Source of the DNA: Collinsella sp.
Lineage (GTDB): Bacteria > Actinomycetota > Coriobacteriia > Coriobacteriales > Coriobacteriaceae
Length of the DNA: 49,450 nt
Direction: 5' to 3'
Assembly (NCBI GenBank): GCA_022720335.1
Contig: JAIHVJ010000001.1
Location: forward strand, 1 to 49,450
Shown here: positions 1,489 to 44,095 of the stretch, piece by piece
Numbering within the stretch: position 1 is the first letter of the stretch
How the letters are laid out: each line of letters starts with the position of its first letter
Notes under the pieces: model-generated
What the model was told of the DNA's origin: nothing
Databases searched by the model: none
What the model saw: only the letters and a program-made list of their open reading frames with translations
Program-made: the position numbers and the translations under genes

Positions 1489-3789
<2,301 letters not shown>

Positions 3790-7967: not shown

Positions 7968-8867
7968 TCAAGCGCTCAAAAAACGTGTGGTGTCTTGCGC
8001 TGCTGTGGTCACACCGCCAAAGAGCACGTGGTTCCAAGGATAATCGTCAAACGTCGCAATCTTAAGACCAGCCGGTAACGAGGGTCCCAACTGCGCCAGA
8101 GCCTCGGTCAGACGCAGGAAGACCAGGCCGTTGACGGCAATCAGGCCGAGCTTTTTGCCGGCATAGTCACGCATGGTCTCGTCCAAGCGGCCGATGCCCG
8201 TGGCGCCACCGTCGGCCAGGGTGACAACCTCGCCCGCAAGTCCGCGGCGCGAAAGCTCGTCGGTAAAGGCCTCGGCGCGCTCTCGACGCACGGGGCTATC
8301 GTCGCTTGCCTCGGTGAGCAGGCACAGGCGCTCGCTGCCCGCAGCGGCCAAGGCGTCTACCAAGCCGGCGACTAGCTCACGGTTGTTAGATGTCACCAGA
8401 TCGACACCGCCGTCGGCAACGTCGCGGTCGAGCAGCACAACGGGCAGACGTCCCGCTGCCGCGGCGATCGCCTCGTCATTGCCTCCGCAGGTGTTGACGA
8501 CCAGGCCGTCCACGCCGGCATCGATAAGCCTGGTGAGCGACTCCGCTTCCTTAGCGGGGTCGTTGCCGCTAATGGCCGTCATGAGCGAGCAGCCGCGCGC
8601 GGCGGCGCTGACGGAAAGCCCTTCGAGCATGGCGCTGGAGAACGGGTTGGCGATGTCGGCCAGGATCACGCCGATGAGGTTGGTGCGCGAGCTGCGTAGA
8701 TTGCGCGCGGCGGCACGCGGGCGATAGCCGGTGCGCTCGATAACCGCCGCGATGCGAGCACGGGTTTCCTCAGTCATTTGCCCGGGGCGGTTGTTGAGAT
8801 AGCGCGAGACCGTGGCCGGGCTCACGCCCGCCTCGGCGGCAATGTCCTTGATTCTCATCTGCGCCAT
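7968..8867 (-). CDS. LacI-family regulator (KdgR/RegR-like), C-terminally truncated
   Basis: IKDIAAEAGVSPATVSRYLN HTH and periplasmic-binding-like domain; stops right after VTTAAQD, lacking the usual last helix and strand. Divergent from kdgK. Confidence 0.8.
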   Translation of the reverse strand: MAQMRIKDIAAEAGVSPATVSRYLNNRPGQMTEETRARIAAVIERTGYRPRAAARNLRSSRTNLIGVILADIANPFSSAMLEGLSVSAAARGCSLMTAISGNDPAKEAESLTRLIDAGVDGLVVNTCGGNDEAIAAAAGRLPVVLLDRDVADGGVDLVTSNNRELVAGLVDALAAAGSERLCLLTEASDDSPVRRERAEAFTDELSRRGLAGEVVTLADGGATGIGRLDETMRDYAGKKLGLIAVNGLVFLRLTEALAQLGPSLPAGLKIATFDDYPWNHVLFGGVTTAAQDTTRFLSA

Positions 8868-8932: not shown

Positions 8933-8997
8933 TTGCAAAACGCTGTAGGTGAGTATACTACAACTCGAAACGAAACCGATTTCGTAAACCGATTTCG
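8933..8997 (+). promoter_or_regulatory. kdgK promoter with tandem LacI-type operators
   Basis: TTGCAA (8933) - N15 - TATACT (8954), then CGAAACCGATTTCG (8971-8984) and AAACCGATTTCG (8986-8997). Confidence 0.7.
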
Positions 8998-9001
8998 GTG
9001 A

Positions 9002-9059
9002 GCGTTGGCACGCAGGTGCAAAGACGCACCCTACCGTCTTGGCACCTGCGTGCCAACGC
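9002..9059 (+). ncRNA. Candidate structured 5' leader hairpin, copy 1 (CACCCUAC loop)
   Basis: 18-bp stem, A.G mismatch, 6-bp stem, loop CACCCTAC; homologue with compensatory changes at 12934-12993. Confidence 0.55.
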
Positions 9060-9102
9060 CATATCAAAGGTGTACGCACGAGCAAGAAGGAGCTACGCGA
9101 CC

Positions 9103-10137
9103 ATGGGTAAAACGGTTCTTACCTTCGGCGAGATCATGATGAGGCTATCGCCCAAAGACCACCTGCGCATTGAGCAGGCGACCGAGTTTGATGTCCGCTA
9201 CGGCGGCGCCGAGGCAAACACCGCGCTTTCCCTGGCCTACCAGGGCGACAAGGCCGCTTACGTCTCCGTTGTCCCGGCCAACCGTCTGGGCGAGTGCGCC
9301 CTGCGTTCGCTGAAGGCCTACGGCGTCGACACCACGCGCGTCGTGCGTCAGGGCGACCGTCTTGGCTCCTATGTGTTTGAGGTCGGTGCCTCGCAGCGCG
9401 GCAACGGCTGCGTCTACGACCGCAAGTTCTCTGCCATCAACATGGCCAAGCGCGATGTTTTTGACTGGGACGAGATCCTCAAGGGCATCGATGTCTTCTA
9501 CTTCTCCGGCGTGACCCCCGCCGTCTCCGACGAGATGGCCGCCGCCTGCAAGGAGGCTCTCGCCGTCTGCCGCGCCAAGGGCATCACCACCGTGTGCGAC
9601 GTGAACTATCGCGGCAAGATGTGGTCGCCCGAGAAGTCGCAGGCCACCATGAGGGAACTCCTGCCGCTCGTCGACATCTGCATCGCCAACGACGAGGATG
9701 CGCCTGCTGGCCTCGGTATGACCTGCGTCTCTGGCTCCCTTGCCCACGGCATCGAGGAGCGCGACACCTATGTCGAGATGGCCCGTCAGATCTGCGCCGA
9801 GTACGGCTGCAAGAAGGTCGCCTCGGTCGTCCGTAACATCTCCTGCGTCGAGCGCTCCATCTGGATGGGCATGCTCTTTGAGGCCGAGAGCGGCGAGCAC
9901 TGGTTCTCCCCTGCTCACGACGTGCACGTACTCGAGGGCGTTGCCGCCGGCGACGCTTTCAACGCCGGCCTCGTCCATGCCCTCATCAACGACTTTGACC
10001 CGCAGGACGCTGTCAACTACGCGATTGCAGCCTCGATCCTCAAGCTCACTATCAAGGGCGACTCCAACTTGGTGACCGCAGACGAGATCGCTGCCGTGGC
10101 CAACGCCGCCGACGGCGGCACCCGCGTCGCCCGTTAA
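9103..10137 (+). CDS. kdgK: 2-keto-3-deoxygluconate kinase (PfkB family)
   Basis: TFGEIMMRLSP, YGGAEANTA, DVNYRGKMWS, AGDAFNAG; AGGAG RBS; adjacent to eda. Confidence 0.9.
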   Translation: MGKTVLTFGEIMMRLSPKDHLRIEQATEFDVRYGGAEANTALSLAYQGDKAAYVSVVPANRLGECALRSLKAYGVDTTRVVRQGDRLGSYVFEVGASQRGNGCVYDRKFSAINMAKRDVFDWDEILKGIDVFYFSGVTPAVSDEMAAACKEALAVCRAKGITTVCDVNYRGKMWSPEKSQATMRELLPLVDICIANDEDAPAGLGMTCVSGSLAHGIEERDTYVEMARQICAEYGCKKVASVVRNISCVERSIWMGMLFEAESGEHWFSPAHDVHVLEGVAAGDAFNAGLVHALINDFDPQDAVNYAIAASILKLTIKGDSNLVTADEIAAVANAADGGTRVAR

Positions 10138-10224
10138 TTCGTTCCCCATTCCGCGGGCTGCAGTTTCCCATACCCATACCCCTGCAGCCCGCTCCCCGAT
10201 TCCTCCGGCCAGGTAGAACCACTT

Positions 10225-10343
10225 AGTCCCATTCCGGCTCTGCCTGGCATTCCTTCACGACTGGCCTCGTAGCCGGTTCCGAAATTGCTTGTGACCCAAG
10301 CAGTGCCTCCGATAACCAATCCGGAACCGGCTCATGGCCAATC
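10225..10343 (+). ncRNA. Candidate structured intergenic element, copy 1 (AGCAGUGCCUCCGAUAA core)
   Basis: Shares AGTCCCATTCCGGC, ACGACTG and AGCAGTGCCTCCGATAA with 13030-13140; 11-bp closing stem AGCCGGTTCCG / CGGAACCGGCT. Confidence 0.5.
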
Positions 10344-10391: not shown

Positions 10392-11033
10392 ATGTTCGAT
10401 CAGTTCTACACCACGCTTGAGTCCCTGGGCATCGTGCCGGTCGTCGTGCTCGACAAGGTCGAGGATGCCGCTCCGCTCGCTCACGCCCTTATGGCCGCCG
10501 GCATGAAGTCCGCCGAGGTCACCTTCCGCACCGCTTGCGCCGCCGAGTGCATCGCCGCCATGGCCGAGGCCGAGCCCGAGATGTGCGTTGGTGCCGGCAC
10601 CGTCCTGACCGTCGAGCAGGTCGAGCAGGCCCGTGCCGCCGGCGCCAAGTTCATCGTCTCCCCGGGCTACAACGAAGACGTCGTCAAGCACTGCATCGAC
10701 ATCGACCTGCCCGTGCTGCCCGGCACCGTGACCCCCTCCGAGGTCACCGCTGCCGTCAACCTGGGTCTCAAGGTCACCAAGTTCTTCCCGGCAGCCCAGT
10801 ACGGCGGCCTCAACAACATCAAGGCCCTCGCCGCTCCGTTTGTCGGCCACCGCTTTATGCCCACCGGCGGCGTGAGCACCGCAAACGTCGAGGAGTACCT
10901 GAGCTCCTCCGCCATCATCGCCTGCGGTGGCACCTGGATGGTCAAGCCGGCCCTGTTCGTCGACGGCGACTTCTCCAAGGTCGAGCAGATCGCTCGCGAG
11001 GCCATGGACGTCGTCAAGAAGGTCCGCGCCTAA
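10392..11033 (+). CDS. eda: KHG/KDPG aldolase
   Basis: EVTFRT, VGAGTVL, FIVSPG, KFFPA, PTGGV motifs. Confidence 0.95.
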   Translation: MFDQFYTTLESLGIVPVVVLDKVEDAAPLAHALMAAGMKSAEVTFRTACAAECIAAMAEAEPEMCVGAGTVLTVEQVEQARAAGAKFIVSPGYNEDVVKHCIDIDLPVLPGTVTPSEVTAAVNLGLKVTKFFPAAQYGGLNNIKALAAPFVGHRFMPTGGVSTANVEEYLSSSAIIACGGTWMVKPALFVDGDFSKVEQIAREAMDVVKKVRA

Positions 11034-11051
11034 TCCAGCTCTCTATCGTGA

Positions 11052-11082
11052 AGGGCGCGATCTAGACCGCGCCCTCTTTTTT
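11052..11082 (+). terminator. Intrinsic terminator after eda
   Basis: AGGGCGCG / CGCGCCCT stem followed by a T-run. Confidence 0.75.
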
Positions 11083-11329
11083 GAAGCGGCTCGGAAGCGT
11101 GCCGTTTCCGTCACGGACAAGAACCGAAACCGTCTTGTATGCTGATAGAACGTGACGGAAGCGACACGCCCCCGAGCCGCTTTTTCTTCGGCTGAACCTT
11201 TGCCCCAACATAGTCCAGAGCGCAAAAACAAATGCGGTGCCGTCTGGAGGAATCGACCCCTTGCTTCCGGTCTGTTCCTCCAAACGGCACCGCAGCTTTT
11301 TGCTTGCGAGCGAGCCTTGCCCCCAACGC

Positions 11330-11396
11330 AGTTGCGGTGAAATAGGGACTGCCTGCGCCTCCTGGGCCGCAAAACAATCCCTATTTCACCGCAACT
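11330..11396. repeat. 67-bp palindromic repeat, copy 1
   Basis: AGTTGCGGTGAAATAGGGA ... TCCCTATTTCACCGCAACT. Confidence 0.85.
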
Positions 11397-11410
11397 TATA
11401 AGGGGATAGA

Positions 11411-12103
11411 TTAGATGGACGAGCTTTTGGGGAGCTCGAAATAGTCGGGATACAAAGCGATGACCGGACCCTGTTCCTCGGGCATAAGATGCAAGTGCGT
11501 CTCTGCCAGGTAGCTCGCCGTATCGGTGTCGCCGTCCATGATGGCATTGAGAATCCGACGGTGCTGGCGGCGGATCGGCTCCCAGTCCAAGTCCTGTGAC
11601 ACGGCACGCAGCCAGTTATACCGTTCAAAATGTGTGTTGACGCTCTTCATCCAATCCCACAGCATGTGGCGGCCGGCAATCTCAAAGCACGTCTCGTGAA
11701 ATAGATTGTCCAGATCAAAGAAGCGACGCGTCTCACTGTGGTCGAGCGACTCGGACTCGGCGAGAATCTGCTCGAGCCGGCGCTTTTGCTCGGGCGTGGC
11801 AGCCGAGCAGCACTTGATCAGCACGCTTCTCTCGAGCTTCTCACGCAGAAAACAGGCGTTCTCGGCGCGTTCCATGCTAATTTTTGAGACATAGGTACCG
11901 CTTTTAGGGCGCGTTTCCACCAGCTCCTGCTCGCGCAGGCGCACAAAGGACTCGCGGATGGGCGTGCGACCGATCCCCGTCTCCTTTTCCAGACCAATCG
12001 CCGAAAGGCGCGTGCCGGGCTTGAGCTCGGCATAGATGATCTTGGAGCGCAATGCGCTGTATGCCTGGTCTTGCAGACTCTGATAATGCTGGTGCTGTTC
12101 CAT
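11411..12103 (-). CDS. GntR-family regulator (FCD domain, RspR/YdfH-like)
   Basis: AYSALRSKII..ELKPG..GIGRTPIRES..PKSGTYV HTH and FCD domain (LDNLFH..QHRRIL..HL). Confidence 0.88.
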   Translation of the reverse strand: MEQHQHYQSLQDQAYSALRSKIIYAELKPGTRLSAIGLEKETGIGRTPIRESFVRLREQELVETRPKSGTYVSKISMERAENACFLREKLERSVLIKCCSAATPEQKRRLEQILAESESLDHSETRRFFDLDNLFHETCFEIAGRHMLWDWMKSVNTHFERYNWLRAVSQDLDWEPIRRQHRRILNAIMDGDTDTASYLAETHLHLMPEEQGPVIALYPDYFELPKSSSI

Positions 12104-12791: not shown

Positions 12792-12930
12792 CGAAATCGG
12801 TTTCGAGCATGTCCTTGCCATGATACCGCCAACGAGTTGTTTCGATTAGGTGAACGTTCCCTTTTTATTATTTTTCTCTTTGCAAAAAGAATCCCGTGCG
12901 TATACTAAGGCTCAAGCGAAACCGATTTCG
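12792..12930. promoter_or_regulatory. Divergent promoter region with two types of LacI operators
   Basis: CGAAATCGGTTTCG (12792-12805), AGGTGAACGTTCCCT (12848-12862), TTGCAA (12880) - N15 - TATACT (12901), CGAAACCGATTTCG (12917-12930). Confidence 0.7.
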
Positions 12931-12933
12931 TTA

Positions 12934-12993
12934 AGCGTGGGCAATAGGATGCTAAGACGCACCCTACCATCTTGGCATCCTATTGCCCACGCT
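12934..12993 (+). ncRNA. Candidate structured 5' leader hairpin, copy 2 (CACCCUAC loop)
   Basis: 19-bp stem AGCGTGGGCAATAGGATGC / GCATCCTATTGCCCACGCT with the same apical AAGACG-CACCCTAC-CRTCTT as copy 1. Confidence 0.55.
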
Positions 12994-13029
12994 ATGTCAT
13001 TTGCTTTCCTCCCGTCTCGTTGGCCCTTC

Positions 13030-13140
13030 AGTCCCATTCCGGCACAGCGAGACATTTCCTAGACGACTGACCGTGGGGCCGGCTTTTCTGCTTTTACAGC
13101 AGTGCCTCCGATAATCCTCTTTTGCCGGCCCAGGTCAGCC
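13030..13140 (+). ncRNA. Candidate structured element, copy 2 (AGCAGUGCCUCCGAUAA core)
   Basis: Homologous to 10225-10343; stems CTGACC/GGTCAG, GGGCCGGC/GCCGGCCC and CTGCT/AGCAG. Confidence 0.5.
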
Positions 13141-13173: not shown

Positions 13174-13854
13174 ATGCGACCGCTCATCATCATGAATGGC
13201 GAGAAGATCGATTGGTGCCACACCGTCATTAGGATGCTGATGTATTTAGCAGGCGTCGCGACGCTTGCCCTCGGCATGAGCATTCAGACCGCTTCGGGCC
13301 TGGGCGTCGCCGCGCTTACCTGTTTTGCCACAACGTTGTCCATGTTGACCGGCAAGACACTCGGCTTTTGGATTACCGCGACCTATGTCGCCTACATTGC
13401 CGCACAGGCAGCCATCTTGCGCCGCGAGTTTCAGCCGCGCATTTTGCTCGAGCTCTTTTTCTCAACGCTGATCGGCGGCTTTACCGATTTCTTTATGAAC
13501 GTTAACCCTCTGCACCCCACCGCGCTGCCGGCACAGGTCGTAACCATGCTGCTCTCGCTTGCCATCACCGCGTTTGGCGTAAGCCTCGTCGTCAATATGG
13601 GCGTCGTTCCCAACGCACCCGACGGCTTGGTACAGGTCATTGCCGAAAAGTTCAAATGCCGCTTTGGCGATGTGAAGGTCGTATTCGATTGCTCGCACGT
13701 CGCCGCCTCGCTCGCGCTGTCGCTGGTCTTTATGCACAACCTGGGCGGCTTTGGCGTCACGACCGCCATCTCGGCACTGTTCCTGGGCCATGTCATCAAC
13801 GTCGCCAATAAGCTCTTCGCCCAGCGCTTTATCCGCGTGGCCTTTGGAAAATAG
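13174..13854 (+). CDS. YczE/YyaS (YitT/DUF6198-like) membrane protein
   Basis: Multiple TM helices, SGLGV, VVPNAPDGLV, GDVKVVFD, GVTTAISALFLG pattern; GAAAGGA RBS. Confidence 0.75.
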   Translation: MRPLIIMNGEKIDWCHTVIRMLMYLAGVATLALGMSIQTASGLGVAALTCFATTLSMLTGKTLGFWITATYVAYIAAQAAILRREFQPRILLELFFSTLIGGFTDFFMNVNPLHPTALPAQVVTMLLSLAITAFGVSLVVNMGVVPNAPDGLVQVIAEKFKCRFGDVKVVFDCSHVAASLALSLVFMHNLGGFGVTTAISALFLGHVINVANKLFAQRFIRVAFGK

Positions 13855-28093: not shown

Positions 28094-28143
28094 ATGGTCC
28101 CTCCCCTTTGCAACCGATTTCACCAATCGGAACACATACAGAT

Positions 28144-29855: not shown

Positions 29856-30935
29856 TTAGATTCCGGCGAGCTCGCAGTAACGATCGACGTTGCTAGCAAA
29901 CACCATCTCAACGGCCCCCTTTTGCACAGGCTCTGCCGGTGTCTTTCCCCACAGCAGGTAATCGCCTAAGGTCTTGGCGCCACGGTATGCCAAACTCACC
30001 GGATCCTTGTAGACGATGTTGGTAAAGATGCCCCGACGCAAGGCCAGCGCACTTTCTGGGAACAGGTCGTTGCCGATCACCATCACTTCGCCGGCCTTGT
30101 TAGCCGAGACAAGCGCATCGGCAATCAGCTCAGAGCCCACGGCGAACACGCTGCAGATCAACTCGGGGGCTTCCGATGACTTTAGACGCTGATTGAGCTC
30201 GTGCTCGAGCTGCTTGACCTGAGCATGAGCGCCGGTCAGATCCTCGACCTGCCAGGGAACATTGTGCTCGCGAAGGTAATTGTGGAAGGCGCGAGCGGTC
30301 AAATAGTGCGAGTCGGTATAGGGGTCGCCCGCCAATAAAAGCACGCGGGTATCGGCCCCGGAAGCGTGAACCAGGTTGGCCGCCTGCTCGGCCATCAGGC
30401 TTCCCGCCGTGGAGTAGTCGGCCAAACTAGCGCCCAGACGATCGAGGTGAGGGCGGTCGCCGTCAACGAGCTCAATCGTCACGCCCGCCTCGGCGATCTG
30501 TCCCAAAAGCTCAGTCGCGCGATCGTCGCCCGGCGCATAGGCGAGCAAGCCATCAATCTTCTCGCCCACCTGCAGACGCTCGTCGATTTGCTCGAGTGCA
30601 TCAGCGTAGCCGCCCACGCCAAATTCAATGCGTTCAACGGTAATGCCCTGGTCGATGACCTCTTGCTCAAAGCGATTGCAGCCTTCCCATAGGTAACGAT
30701 AGAAATAAGCGCCCTCACGCGATGCGCATGGCAGACAAAACAGCAGATTGATGTCCTTACGACGCAGGCTCGAAGCGCTCGTGTTTCGGTGATAGCCCAT
30801 CTCCCCAGCCTTAGCATTAACCTTGGCACGCACAGACTCGCTCACGCCAGCCTTGCCCGTAAGGGCCTTATGCACGGTGTTAATGGAAACGCCAAGCTCG
30901 GCGGCTATGTCCTTCATGGTGACGCGTGCGCTCAT
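29856..30935 (-). CDS. LacI-family regulator (probable uronate regulator)
   Basis: VTMKDIAAELGVSINTVHKAL HTH and sugar-binding domain; directly upstream of uxaC. Confidence 0.88.
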   Translation of the reverse strand: MSARVTMKDIAAELGVSINTVHKALTGKAGVSESVRAKVNAKAGEMGYHRNTSASSLRRKDINLLFCLPCASREGAYFYRYLWEGCNRFEQEVIDQGITVERIEFGVGGYADALEQIDERLQVGEKIDGLLAYAPGDDRATELLGQIAEAGVTIELVDGDRPHLDRLGASLADYSTAGSLMAEQAANLVHASGADTRVLLLAGDPYTDSHYLTARAFHNYLREHNVPWQVEDLTGAHAQVKQLEHELNQRLKSSEAPELICSVFAVGSELIADALVSANKAGEVMVIGNDLFPESALALRRGIFTNIVYKDPVSLAYRGAKTLGDYLLWGKTPAEPVQKGAVEMVFASNVDRYCELAGI

Positions 30936-43839: not shown

Positions 43840-44095
43840 ACCAGTGATCCTCCTTTATGGATCTGTGCCGCCCCGTGTCGTTCCGGGCGGCGTCGTACAG
43901 ATTTGCCCAGCCTGCGTAAACCGCGCAGCCGGACATGGCGTTCTATCTTATCGCACCCGCGTCGATGTGCCGCGAAAAAGTAGTTCTCGCCCAAAGACTT
44001 GACGGAGACGAAACAATTGACGCAGCCTGGCCGTCGCCAAGGCGCGCCGCGTGCGACAATGTGCCCCAATACAACTGCACTCGGAAAGGCCCGCC

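Follow-up and report, generated by a model that had tools for sequence, protein, structure and literature searches.

Hairpin modules with conserved single strands in the kdgK-eda leader and spacer of Collinsella, and their apparent duplication upstream of a YczE-like gene

Introduction

The cuckoo sRNAs of alphaproteobacteria (RSs0680/CcsR, ar14) consist of two to four adjacent hairpins with variable stems and conserved loops, and the loops all carry CCUCCUCCC in the family as it is presented in PMC4615179. The 6C sRNA of high-GC Gram-positive bacteria is actinobacterial, and its C-rich loops pair with mRNAs without a chaperone, by the description in PMC6486639. In the Ruminiclostridium cip-cel system, strong intergenic stem-loops of selective RNA processing and stabilisation (SRPS) lie within a carbohydrate operon of an RNase Y/J organism; specificity resides in the stems and the flanks of the cut sites are unconserved, as stated in PMC10311766. 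For Collinsella itself, the Collinsella-1 motif is given as an Rfam family in PMC2864571, and we found no published work on RNA-level regulation in the genus.

Here we describe a set of hairpins, named H1, HA, HB and HC, in a window of 49,450 nucleotides from a Collinsella sp. genome (the whole stretch of DNA that was analysed; contig JAIHVJ010000001.1, forward strand). They are real, lineage-restricted structured RNA modules that have apparently not been described before. An earlier note on this DNA had recognised no matching RNA family, which agrees with the absence from the window of any Rfam 15 family at gathering threshold, save the known aspS RNA (RF02930) at 43851-43934, upstream of aspS. 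Rfam scans by E-value with both leaders and the spacer returned sub-threshold matches only, mostly to microRNA models, and the Collinsella-1 model did not match the set. In supplement 2 of Fremin and Bhatt (PMC8040213) the 12/12 KdgK rows, the 3 KDPG aldolase rows and the 1 YczE row are not from Collinsella, and files 7 and 8 of that study may still hold a match.

The set shares the hairpin array of the cuckoo RNAs, but not the CCUCCUCCC in each loop: the Collinsella loops differ from each other and only HC has CCUCC. Moreover, the Collinsella set belongs to another phylum, Hfq was not found in its genome, and in one copy the modules are split by a gene, none of which fits the family of PMC4615179 as described there. 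Relative to 6C as characterised in PMC6486639, the set lacks an Rfam match, is confined to one species group, and is known here from sequence rather than as a separate transcript. As in the SRPS of PMC10311766, strong stem-loops stand between co-oriented genes in a genome encoding RNase Y and J; however, the Collinsella loops are conserved and the stems free. We tentatively read the modules, with a probability of roughly two in five, as cis elements for mRNA stability or processing whose loops are read by a putative factor.

Results

Organization of the two copies

The layout of the modules, how they fold and covary, the conservation of their motifs, the homology between copy 2 and leader plus spacer, the narrow phylogenetic range and the RNase gene content were all computed. 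The promoter-operator-hairpin order reported by the earlier note as duplicated is indeed present twice. Copy 1 is placed between a divergent LacI-family gene and kdgK-eda, and copy 2 between gntR/HIT and a YczE-like gene. The features are:

7968 to 8867, minus strand: LacI-family regulator gene (KdgR-like by context), presumed operator binder, divergent from kdgK (Pfam LacI, NCBIfam).
8933 to 8959, plus strand: putative promoter 1 (TTGCAA, 15 nt, TATACT), hexamers at 8933-8938 and 8954-8959.
8971 to 8997, plus strand: two overlapping LacI-type operators with central CG in copy 1, 8971-8984 and a second at 8985-8997.
9002 to 9059, plus strand: H1 of copy 1, a hairpin of 25 pairs with loop 9027-9034 (folding, covariation, orthologue alignment).
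9103 to 10137, plus strand: kdgK-like PfkB kinase gene (Pfam, NCBIfam).
10153 to 10192, plus strand: HA, an 18-nt C-rich loop on an 11-bp stem, missing from copy 2 (folding, orthologues).
10208 to 10248, plus strand: HB, a 15-nt loop on a stem, with conserved AGTCCCATTCC inside the loop (folding, orthologues).
10261 to 10341, plus strand: HC, a branched hairpin exposing TGCCTCCGATAACC, including an anti-SD-like CCTCC (folding, orthologues).
10392 to 11033, plus strand: eda, KDPG/KHG aldolase gene (Pfam, NCBIfam).
11052 to 11083, plus strand: terminator-like hairpin 3' of eda (terminator scan).
11411 to 12103, minus strand: GntR/FCD regulator gene between eda and copy 2 (Pfam, NCBIfam).
12850 to 12861, unstranded: degenerate operator of a second type (GTGAACGTTC-), also at the kduD and uxaC leaders (sequence comparison).
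12880 to 12906, plus strand: putative promoter 2, hexamers at 12880-12885 and 12901-12906.
12917 to 12930, plus strand: LacI-type operator with the same sequence as the first operator of copy 1.
12935 to 12992, plus strand: H1 of copy 2, loop 12960-12967 (folding, covariation).
13014 to 13053, plus strand: HB of copy 2, same loop core, stem rewritten (folding, alignment).
13067 to 13138, plus strand: HC of copy 2, same single strand, stems rewritten (folding, alignment).
13174 to 13854, plus strand: YczE/DUF6198-like membrane protein gene, led by copy 2 (Pfam DUF6198; NCBIfam YczE match far below cut-off).

The duplicated leader hairpin is real, but H1 is only one module of a larger set, whose other members HA, HB and HC had been missed. 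These three make up the fold of the kdgK-eda spacer, with C-rich single strands (z -7.8), and each of the four hairpins lies 5' of a coding gene. A BLAST search with the long leader of copy 2 also matched this spacer. Copy 2 comprises promoter, operator, H1, HB, HC and ribosome site without kdgK and HA, and by this homology would be a duplicate in which the kdgK leader was joined to the kdgK-eda spacer with loss of kdgK and HA. Among loci of at least 1500 bases only, which come from kin and are not independent, copy 1 lies upstream of kdgK in 67/67 and copy 2 upstream of the YczE-like gene in 41/43, the two exceptions being one contig end and one rearranged hairpin.

The ATRTCA following the hairpin, listed earlier as a shared motif, is not kept by copy-2 homologues and was dropped. 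A 22-codon upstream ORF in copy 2 was also dropped because its start codon is missing in several homologues. Near position 3000 of locus L071, a copy-2 hairpin has one arm gone and its loop inverted, as an assembly error or a template-switch product. RNA-library contigs of one study, which alone do not show transcription, span the kdgK-eda spacer and copy 2, and in 3/3 runs of that study they break across H1 of copy 1. A single contig of run X1 (window 9012-9087) joins the 5' arm of H1 to bases beyond the hairpin through a short word common to both places; as a lone case in one run it carries no weight as evidence.

Promoters and operators

Both hexamers of promoter 1 are invariant in 25/25 kdgK orthologues, and similar boxes were read by eye at distant kdgK orthologues. 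The 15-nt spacing of the -35 and -10 hexamers is short for a sigma-70 promoter. In a promoter scan copy 2 alone was called, with the -35 shifted so that the spacer is 16 nt, and calls came at chance frequency (2 found, 1.6 expected).

The CGAAACCGATTTCG operator is an even palindrome with a central CG that co-occurs with the LacI regulator, and is predicted to be a LacI-family operator. A central CG is typical of LacI-family sites, according to a statement in PMC4052901. The operator is found at 9/9 distant kdgK leaders beside a LacI orthologue (three read by eye) and at 0/6 beside GntR. The earlier claim of one operator in both copies stands for the first operator of copy 1, which copy 2 repeats; the second, overlapping operator of copy 1 (8985-8997) had escaped it.

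The kduD and uxaC leaders carry a palindrome different from the CGAAACCGATTTCG operator. This second type occurs at window positions 12850, 16961, 29626 and 29664 (copy-2, kduD and uxaC leaders); its regulator is likely the product of the LacI gene at 29856-30935, and control of copy 2 may be dual. KdgR-type operators that lack an H1 also stand at window 12793-12804 (gntR/HIT side) and 28110-28121 (before an MFS transporter gene), and elsewhere in genome G000 at C56:4455-4468 and C447:188-201, before a gene that from its start resembles lactate dehydrogenase.

Fold and loop of H1

H1 has predicted folding energies of -47.8 (copy 1) and -43.6 kcal/mol (copy 2), with z-scores of -9.7 and -11.6, and 0/200 shuffles were as stable in either copy. 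It had been claimed that every stem change is compensated. This is true of the 18-bp lower stems, which are fully paired in both copies, but not of two apex differences (A-G versus U-G, and C-G versus C-A). The lower stems differ at 6 pairs in an ungapped alignment; shifting both arms by one base, with about 3 changes, accounts for these differences as well.

Neither H1 has a U-tract or was called terminator-like, in keeping with the earlier statement that it is no plain terminator. Across both strands the terminator scan called none of H1, HA, HB and HC, and in none of them is the hairpin followed by a U-tract. A BglG/LicT antiterminator (RAT) site is a RAT hairpin overlapping a terminator; no terminator overlaps H1, though the genome has 5 CAT_RBD matches.

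The H1 loop is not strictly invariant as had been thought: 5 of the 25 protein-identified orthologues have T as its first base, and the ACCCTAC of the loop is the same in 25/25. Searching the whole genome for the 20-nt apex with up to 3 mismatches returned the two copies and one unrelated 3-mismatch match. Between paralogues the loop alone is identical at 8/8 positions versus 21/42 in spacers (p=0.015), and the evidence from this loop by itself is modest. Within the 25 kdgK orthologues found by protein, H1 is variable at 7/58 columns versus 108/190 fourfold sites, and is no more conserved than neighbouring non-coding DNA (7/58 versus 15/65 variable columns, p=0.16).

Conserved single strands on rewritten stems

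For the whole set, paralogue identity is 32/33 in single-stranded motifs, 61/107 in stems with pairing kept, and 21/42 in spacers; motifs versus spacers give a Fisher p of about 5e-6, with segment borders chosen post hoc, after the alignment had been seen. In alignment sets that were partly gathered via the loop motifs, 93% of H1 cells are paired and 10/25 pairs are changed on both sides (51 haplotypes), compared with at most 44% paired when H1 partners are slid as a control; for HB/HC, 98% of cells are paired and 12/19 pairs are changed on both sides. One-sided intermediates segregate. Most of the covariation comes from one paralogue split, and hence from few events. Across the 25 protein-identified kdgK orthologues the HB core does not vary and the HC strand does so at 1/16 columns. 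The motifs are predicted to be unpaired with probabilities of 0.78-1.0. Folding, covariation and the retention of the motifs support the proposal, made from the letters alone, of selection on RNA structure together with sequence-specific single strands.

Covariation carries less weight, however, against the genomic background of 165 perfect inverted repeats of at least 16 bp and of families that rewrite their stems. These repeats, and families with conserved cores inside copy-specific perfect stems, are what one would expect if the hairpins were near-neutral products of template switching, with arms kept perfect and loops that seem conserved from recent duplication. Template switching can create and repair stems, as reported in bioRxiv 10.1101/2021.04.15.439925, and the element is young, with H1 apparently an insertion. 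By reasoning, though, template switching should let loops and stems diverge alike, which is at odds with motifs at 32/33 and spacers at 21/42, with borders chosen post hoc. Mismatches near the H1 apex also persist uncorrected, and G-U intermediates are common. Template switching would account for the perfect stems, yet not for loops diverging less than spacers do, and we hold it improbable as a full account.

A similar weighing applies to whether DNA or RNA is under selection. DNA could itself be the selected object, as hairpins or cruciforms or as duplex sites for a DNA-binding protein. The stems are near-perfect Watson-Crick, H1 contains A-C pairs including a C-A fixed in copy 2, and H1 adjoins the operators. 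On the other hand, G-U pair types outnumber A-C (26 versus 13, p=0.053), an excess favouring the transcribed strand that speaks mildly for sense-strand RNA. Internal loops interrupt the branched HC, and the motifs lack symmetry and all lie on the transcribed strand. We consider a DNA-level role very improbable.

The sister lineage L365, which was found through the HC motif, diverges by 38-43% at fourfold sites; its stems of HA and HC are new and its 15-nt HB loop is retained. No genome resembling L365 was found among the 251 searched. The spacer holds 6 instances of a CC(C/G)AT(T/A)(A/C)C-like word, which clusters nowhere else in the genome as densely; the test is circular in that the word was derived from the spacer. 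A genome-wide bias toward C-rich loops, 9 versus 0 in a first count, was rejected, as it was gone on unstructured loops (17 versus 18).

Phylogenetic range and the second gene

Apart from G000, a kdgK of at least 96% identity is encoded by 24 of the 301 genomes searched from the order. H1 is present in 24/24 of these close orthologues, and copy 2 in 7 of the 24. By covariance model, H1 was found at 0/18 more distant kdgK loci, 9 of which keep the LacI regulator and operator. At three distant kdgK loci, read by eye, the bases that follow H1 here directly adjoin the operator, and for this reason H1 looks like an insertion. The element is young, and was probably gained in the Collinsella aerofaciens group.

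The searches outside this group point the same way. The covariance-model search proposed in the earlier note gave no convincing match outside close Collinsella in 150 genomes of the order: the H1 model matched 3/150, all close Collinsella, and the HB-HC model the same 3/150 plus one match at E 0.38. In 5 more distant Collinsella the HB-HC model gave only E-values above 1. BLAST with copy 2 matched 25/301 genomes of the order, all in one genus, and the exact H1 apex, among the 80 matches listed, occurred in Collinsella or uncultured bacterium throughout. The exact two-motif HB-HC pattern is present in 219/401 genus genomes, at most twice in each, with 0 control matches. No match was found in the plasmids and phages searched; one apex match in viral contigs, lacking a long stem, was taken as chance. 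In a metagenome scan with the HC motif, HB lay upstream in 52/127 matches, and the other 75/127 were unrelated, save one cut by a contig end.

The hairpin had been placed in uronate-regulon leaders in general, a view that is not supported: across the window, which includes the kduD, uxaC and transporter leaders, the covariance model matches H1 at its two copies alone, and of the distant kdgK loci it matches 0/18. Nor is it a dispersed REP, a caution the earlier note had itself raised. REP/MITE-like extragenic palindromes are long intergenic inverted repeats, whereas the Collinsella set has 2 copies in G000 and none above 2 in 401 genus genomes, always at this locus, in a fixed orientation and context, and with the loop rather than the arms conserved. 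The window does contain one REP/MITE-like inverted repeat (11331-11400), in which the arms are conserved and the loop varies; 58 matches to its arm pattern occur in G000.

Close YczE-like orthologues found by protein have copy 2 in 7/8. In the eighth (G264) the YczE-like gene stands directly behind eda, without gntR and copy 2, which fits a duplicate recruited when gntR cut the YczE-like gene off from the operon; loss in G264 also fits. The eda-to-YczE-like spacer of G264 (L252) has other long hairpins, related to window 11034-11330. In a distant Collinsella, G061 (L210 / L192), unrelated long stems with pyrimidine-rich loops stand in the kdgK leader and the kdgK-eda spacer.

Candidate pairing with the ndk leader

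C-rich loops held on stable stems could pair with G-rich mRNA leaders without Hfq, in the manner of a trans-acting cuckoo- or 6C-like RNA processed from the spacer, of which copy 2 would be a compact version. The candidate target is the ndk leader, through a loop-loop kissing contact. The high predicted accessibility of the motifs suits such an RNA, and Hfq was not found in this 94% complete genome. HC with its CCUCC pairs with start regions more strongly, on average, than shuffled seeds do (-9.9 versus -8.2 +/- 0.7 kcal/mol). HB has a perfect complement in the ndk leader of 14 nt from the spacer and 16 nt from copy 2, top of 1857 leaders for both copies, with a duplex energy beyond all 12 shuffles for each. 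The ndk site lies in a leader hairpin loop that costs 1.7 kcal/mol to open, its 13 nt are identical in 29/30 close genomes, and shorter HB complements occur at the starts of ptsI, a PTS IIB gene, glpK, gldA and ppc.

The ndk match is nevertheless borderline, given that several modules were tested: shuffle p is 0.155 (spacer, 14 nt), 0.010 (copy 2, 16 nt) and 0.053 (motif set, 13 nt), and the BLAST E-value is 3.9. A loop-only, accessibility-aware ranking did no better than shuffled seeds (-14.3 versus -13.4 to -19.6), the complement word ranks only 27 of 168 permutations, and the ndk site is just as conserved in genomes without the element. No terminator was called 3' of HC. The H1 loop lacks an anti-SD, its targets do not exceed chance, and the antisense or kissing partner once suggested for it did not emerge, as none beat shuffled seeds; an 11-nt match at the fabD start was rejected as being at chance level. 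A trans-acting role is the main rival of the cis reading, and somewhat less likely than it. An extended version, rather unlikely in our estimate, would see here a regulatory RNA at birth: operon leader and spacer would act as a distributed multi-seed RNA, and duplication and deletion would have produced a compact, repressor-controlled RNA that pairs loop to loop with the ndk leader and with carbon-uptake mRNAs without Hfq.

The ndk leader hairpin (L245:3150-3215, G000 C106) has a G-rich loop and is nearly invariant in 30 close genomes. A similar word occurs in G015, a more distant genome; G029 lacks it. At L241:3265-3315 (G000 C357), a hairpin with an HA-like loop and C-rich flanks lies in a spacer of an apparent PTS sugar operon, its genes named from their starts.

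Discussion

Position, strict linkage to the downstream gene and the lack of a terminator favour control of mRNA fate in cis. H1, HA, HB and HC would then be cis-acting RNA stem-loops in the leader and spacer of a LacI-repressed kdgK-eda operon. Release of the repressor from the promoter by an inducer, presumably KDG or a derivative, would allow transcription. In the transcript H1 would fold about 20-35 nt from the predicted 5' end, and HA-HB-HC upstream of the ribosome site of eda. Their long GC-rich stems may block or guide the RNase Y / RNase J / RNase III machinery, and so might set mRNA stability and the kdgK:eda ratio, while the C-rich single strands would be held open and read by a putative sequence-specific protein or RNA partner. 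Where gntR parts the YczE-like gene from eda, that gene appears to carry a duplicate of the control package minus kdgK and HA, with the order of events as proposed above.

Genes for RNase Y, RNase J, RNase III and Rho are present, and searches of this 94% complete genome detected no RNase E, Hfq or CsrA. The predicted position of H1, 20-35 nt from the 5' end and not at the end, counts against the cis-stability reading. In addition, stems rather than loops carry specificity in cip-cel as presented in PMC10311766, which makes a loop-reading partner an added assumption. The cip-cel model taken alone leaves the invariant loops unexplained.

The modules might instead work as a switch. HB-HC, together with H1, would respond to a ligand or to ribosomes and hide or free the ribosome site of the next gene. 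HC is branched, and in both copies it has a conserved unpaired strand that lies 35-75 nt upstream of the ribosome site. Partial pairing is also predicted for the SD (unpaired 0.43 at eda and 0.12 at the YczE-like gene). However, the SD-blocking pairings differ between the copies, and we found no conserved alternative fold and no Rfam match for such a candidate. The range of one species group, unusual for riboswitches, also speaks against it, and a switch has a low probability in our judgement.

Three loop motifs kept through a duplication while their stems were rewritten, beneath a sugar-responsive repressor, make a small testable case in a common gut genus. The two copies show how an operon's untranslated segments can be compacted and put to use again. 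A loop reader, once found, would point to a C-rich RNA-binding factor or to a chaperone-free base-pairing RNA in this lineage. The general reach is limited by the narrow range.

Separately, G000 contains a dispersed family of 24 copies with a conserved branched core and, in most copies, copy-specific perfect closing stems of up to 41 bp; examples are C435:17588-17736 (L414), C197:1877-1995 (L415) and C211:7307-7443, with 21 more. Ten repeat loci tested against Rfam gave no family at threshold. Two smaller families, of 4 and 5 copies, have the same design, and the 24-copy family is possibly a finding of its own.
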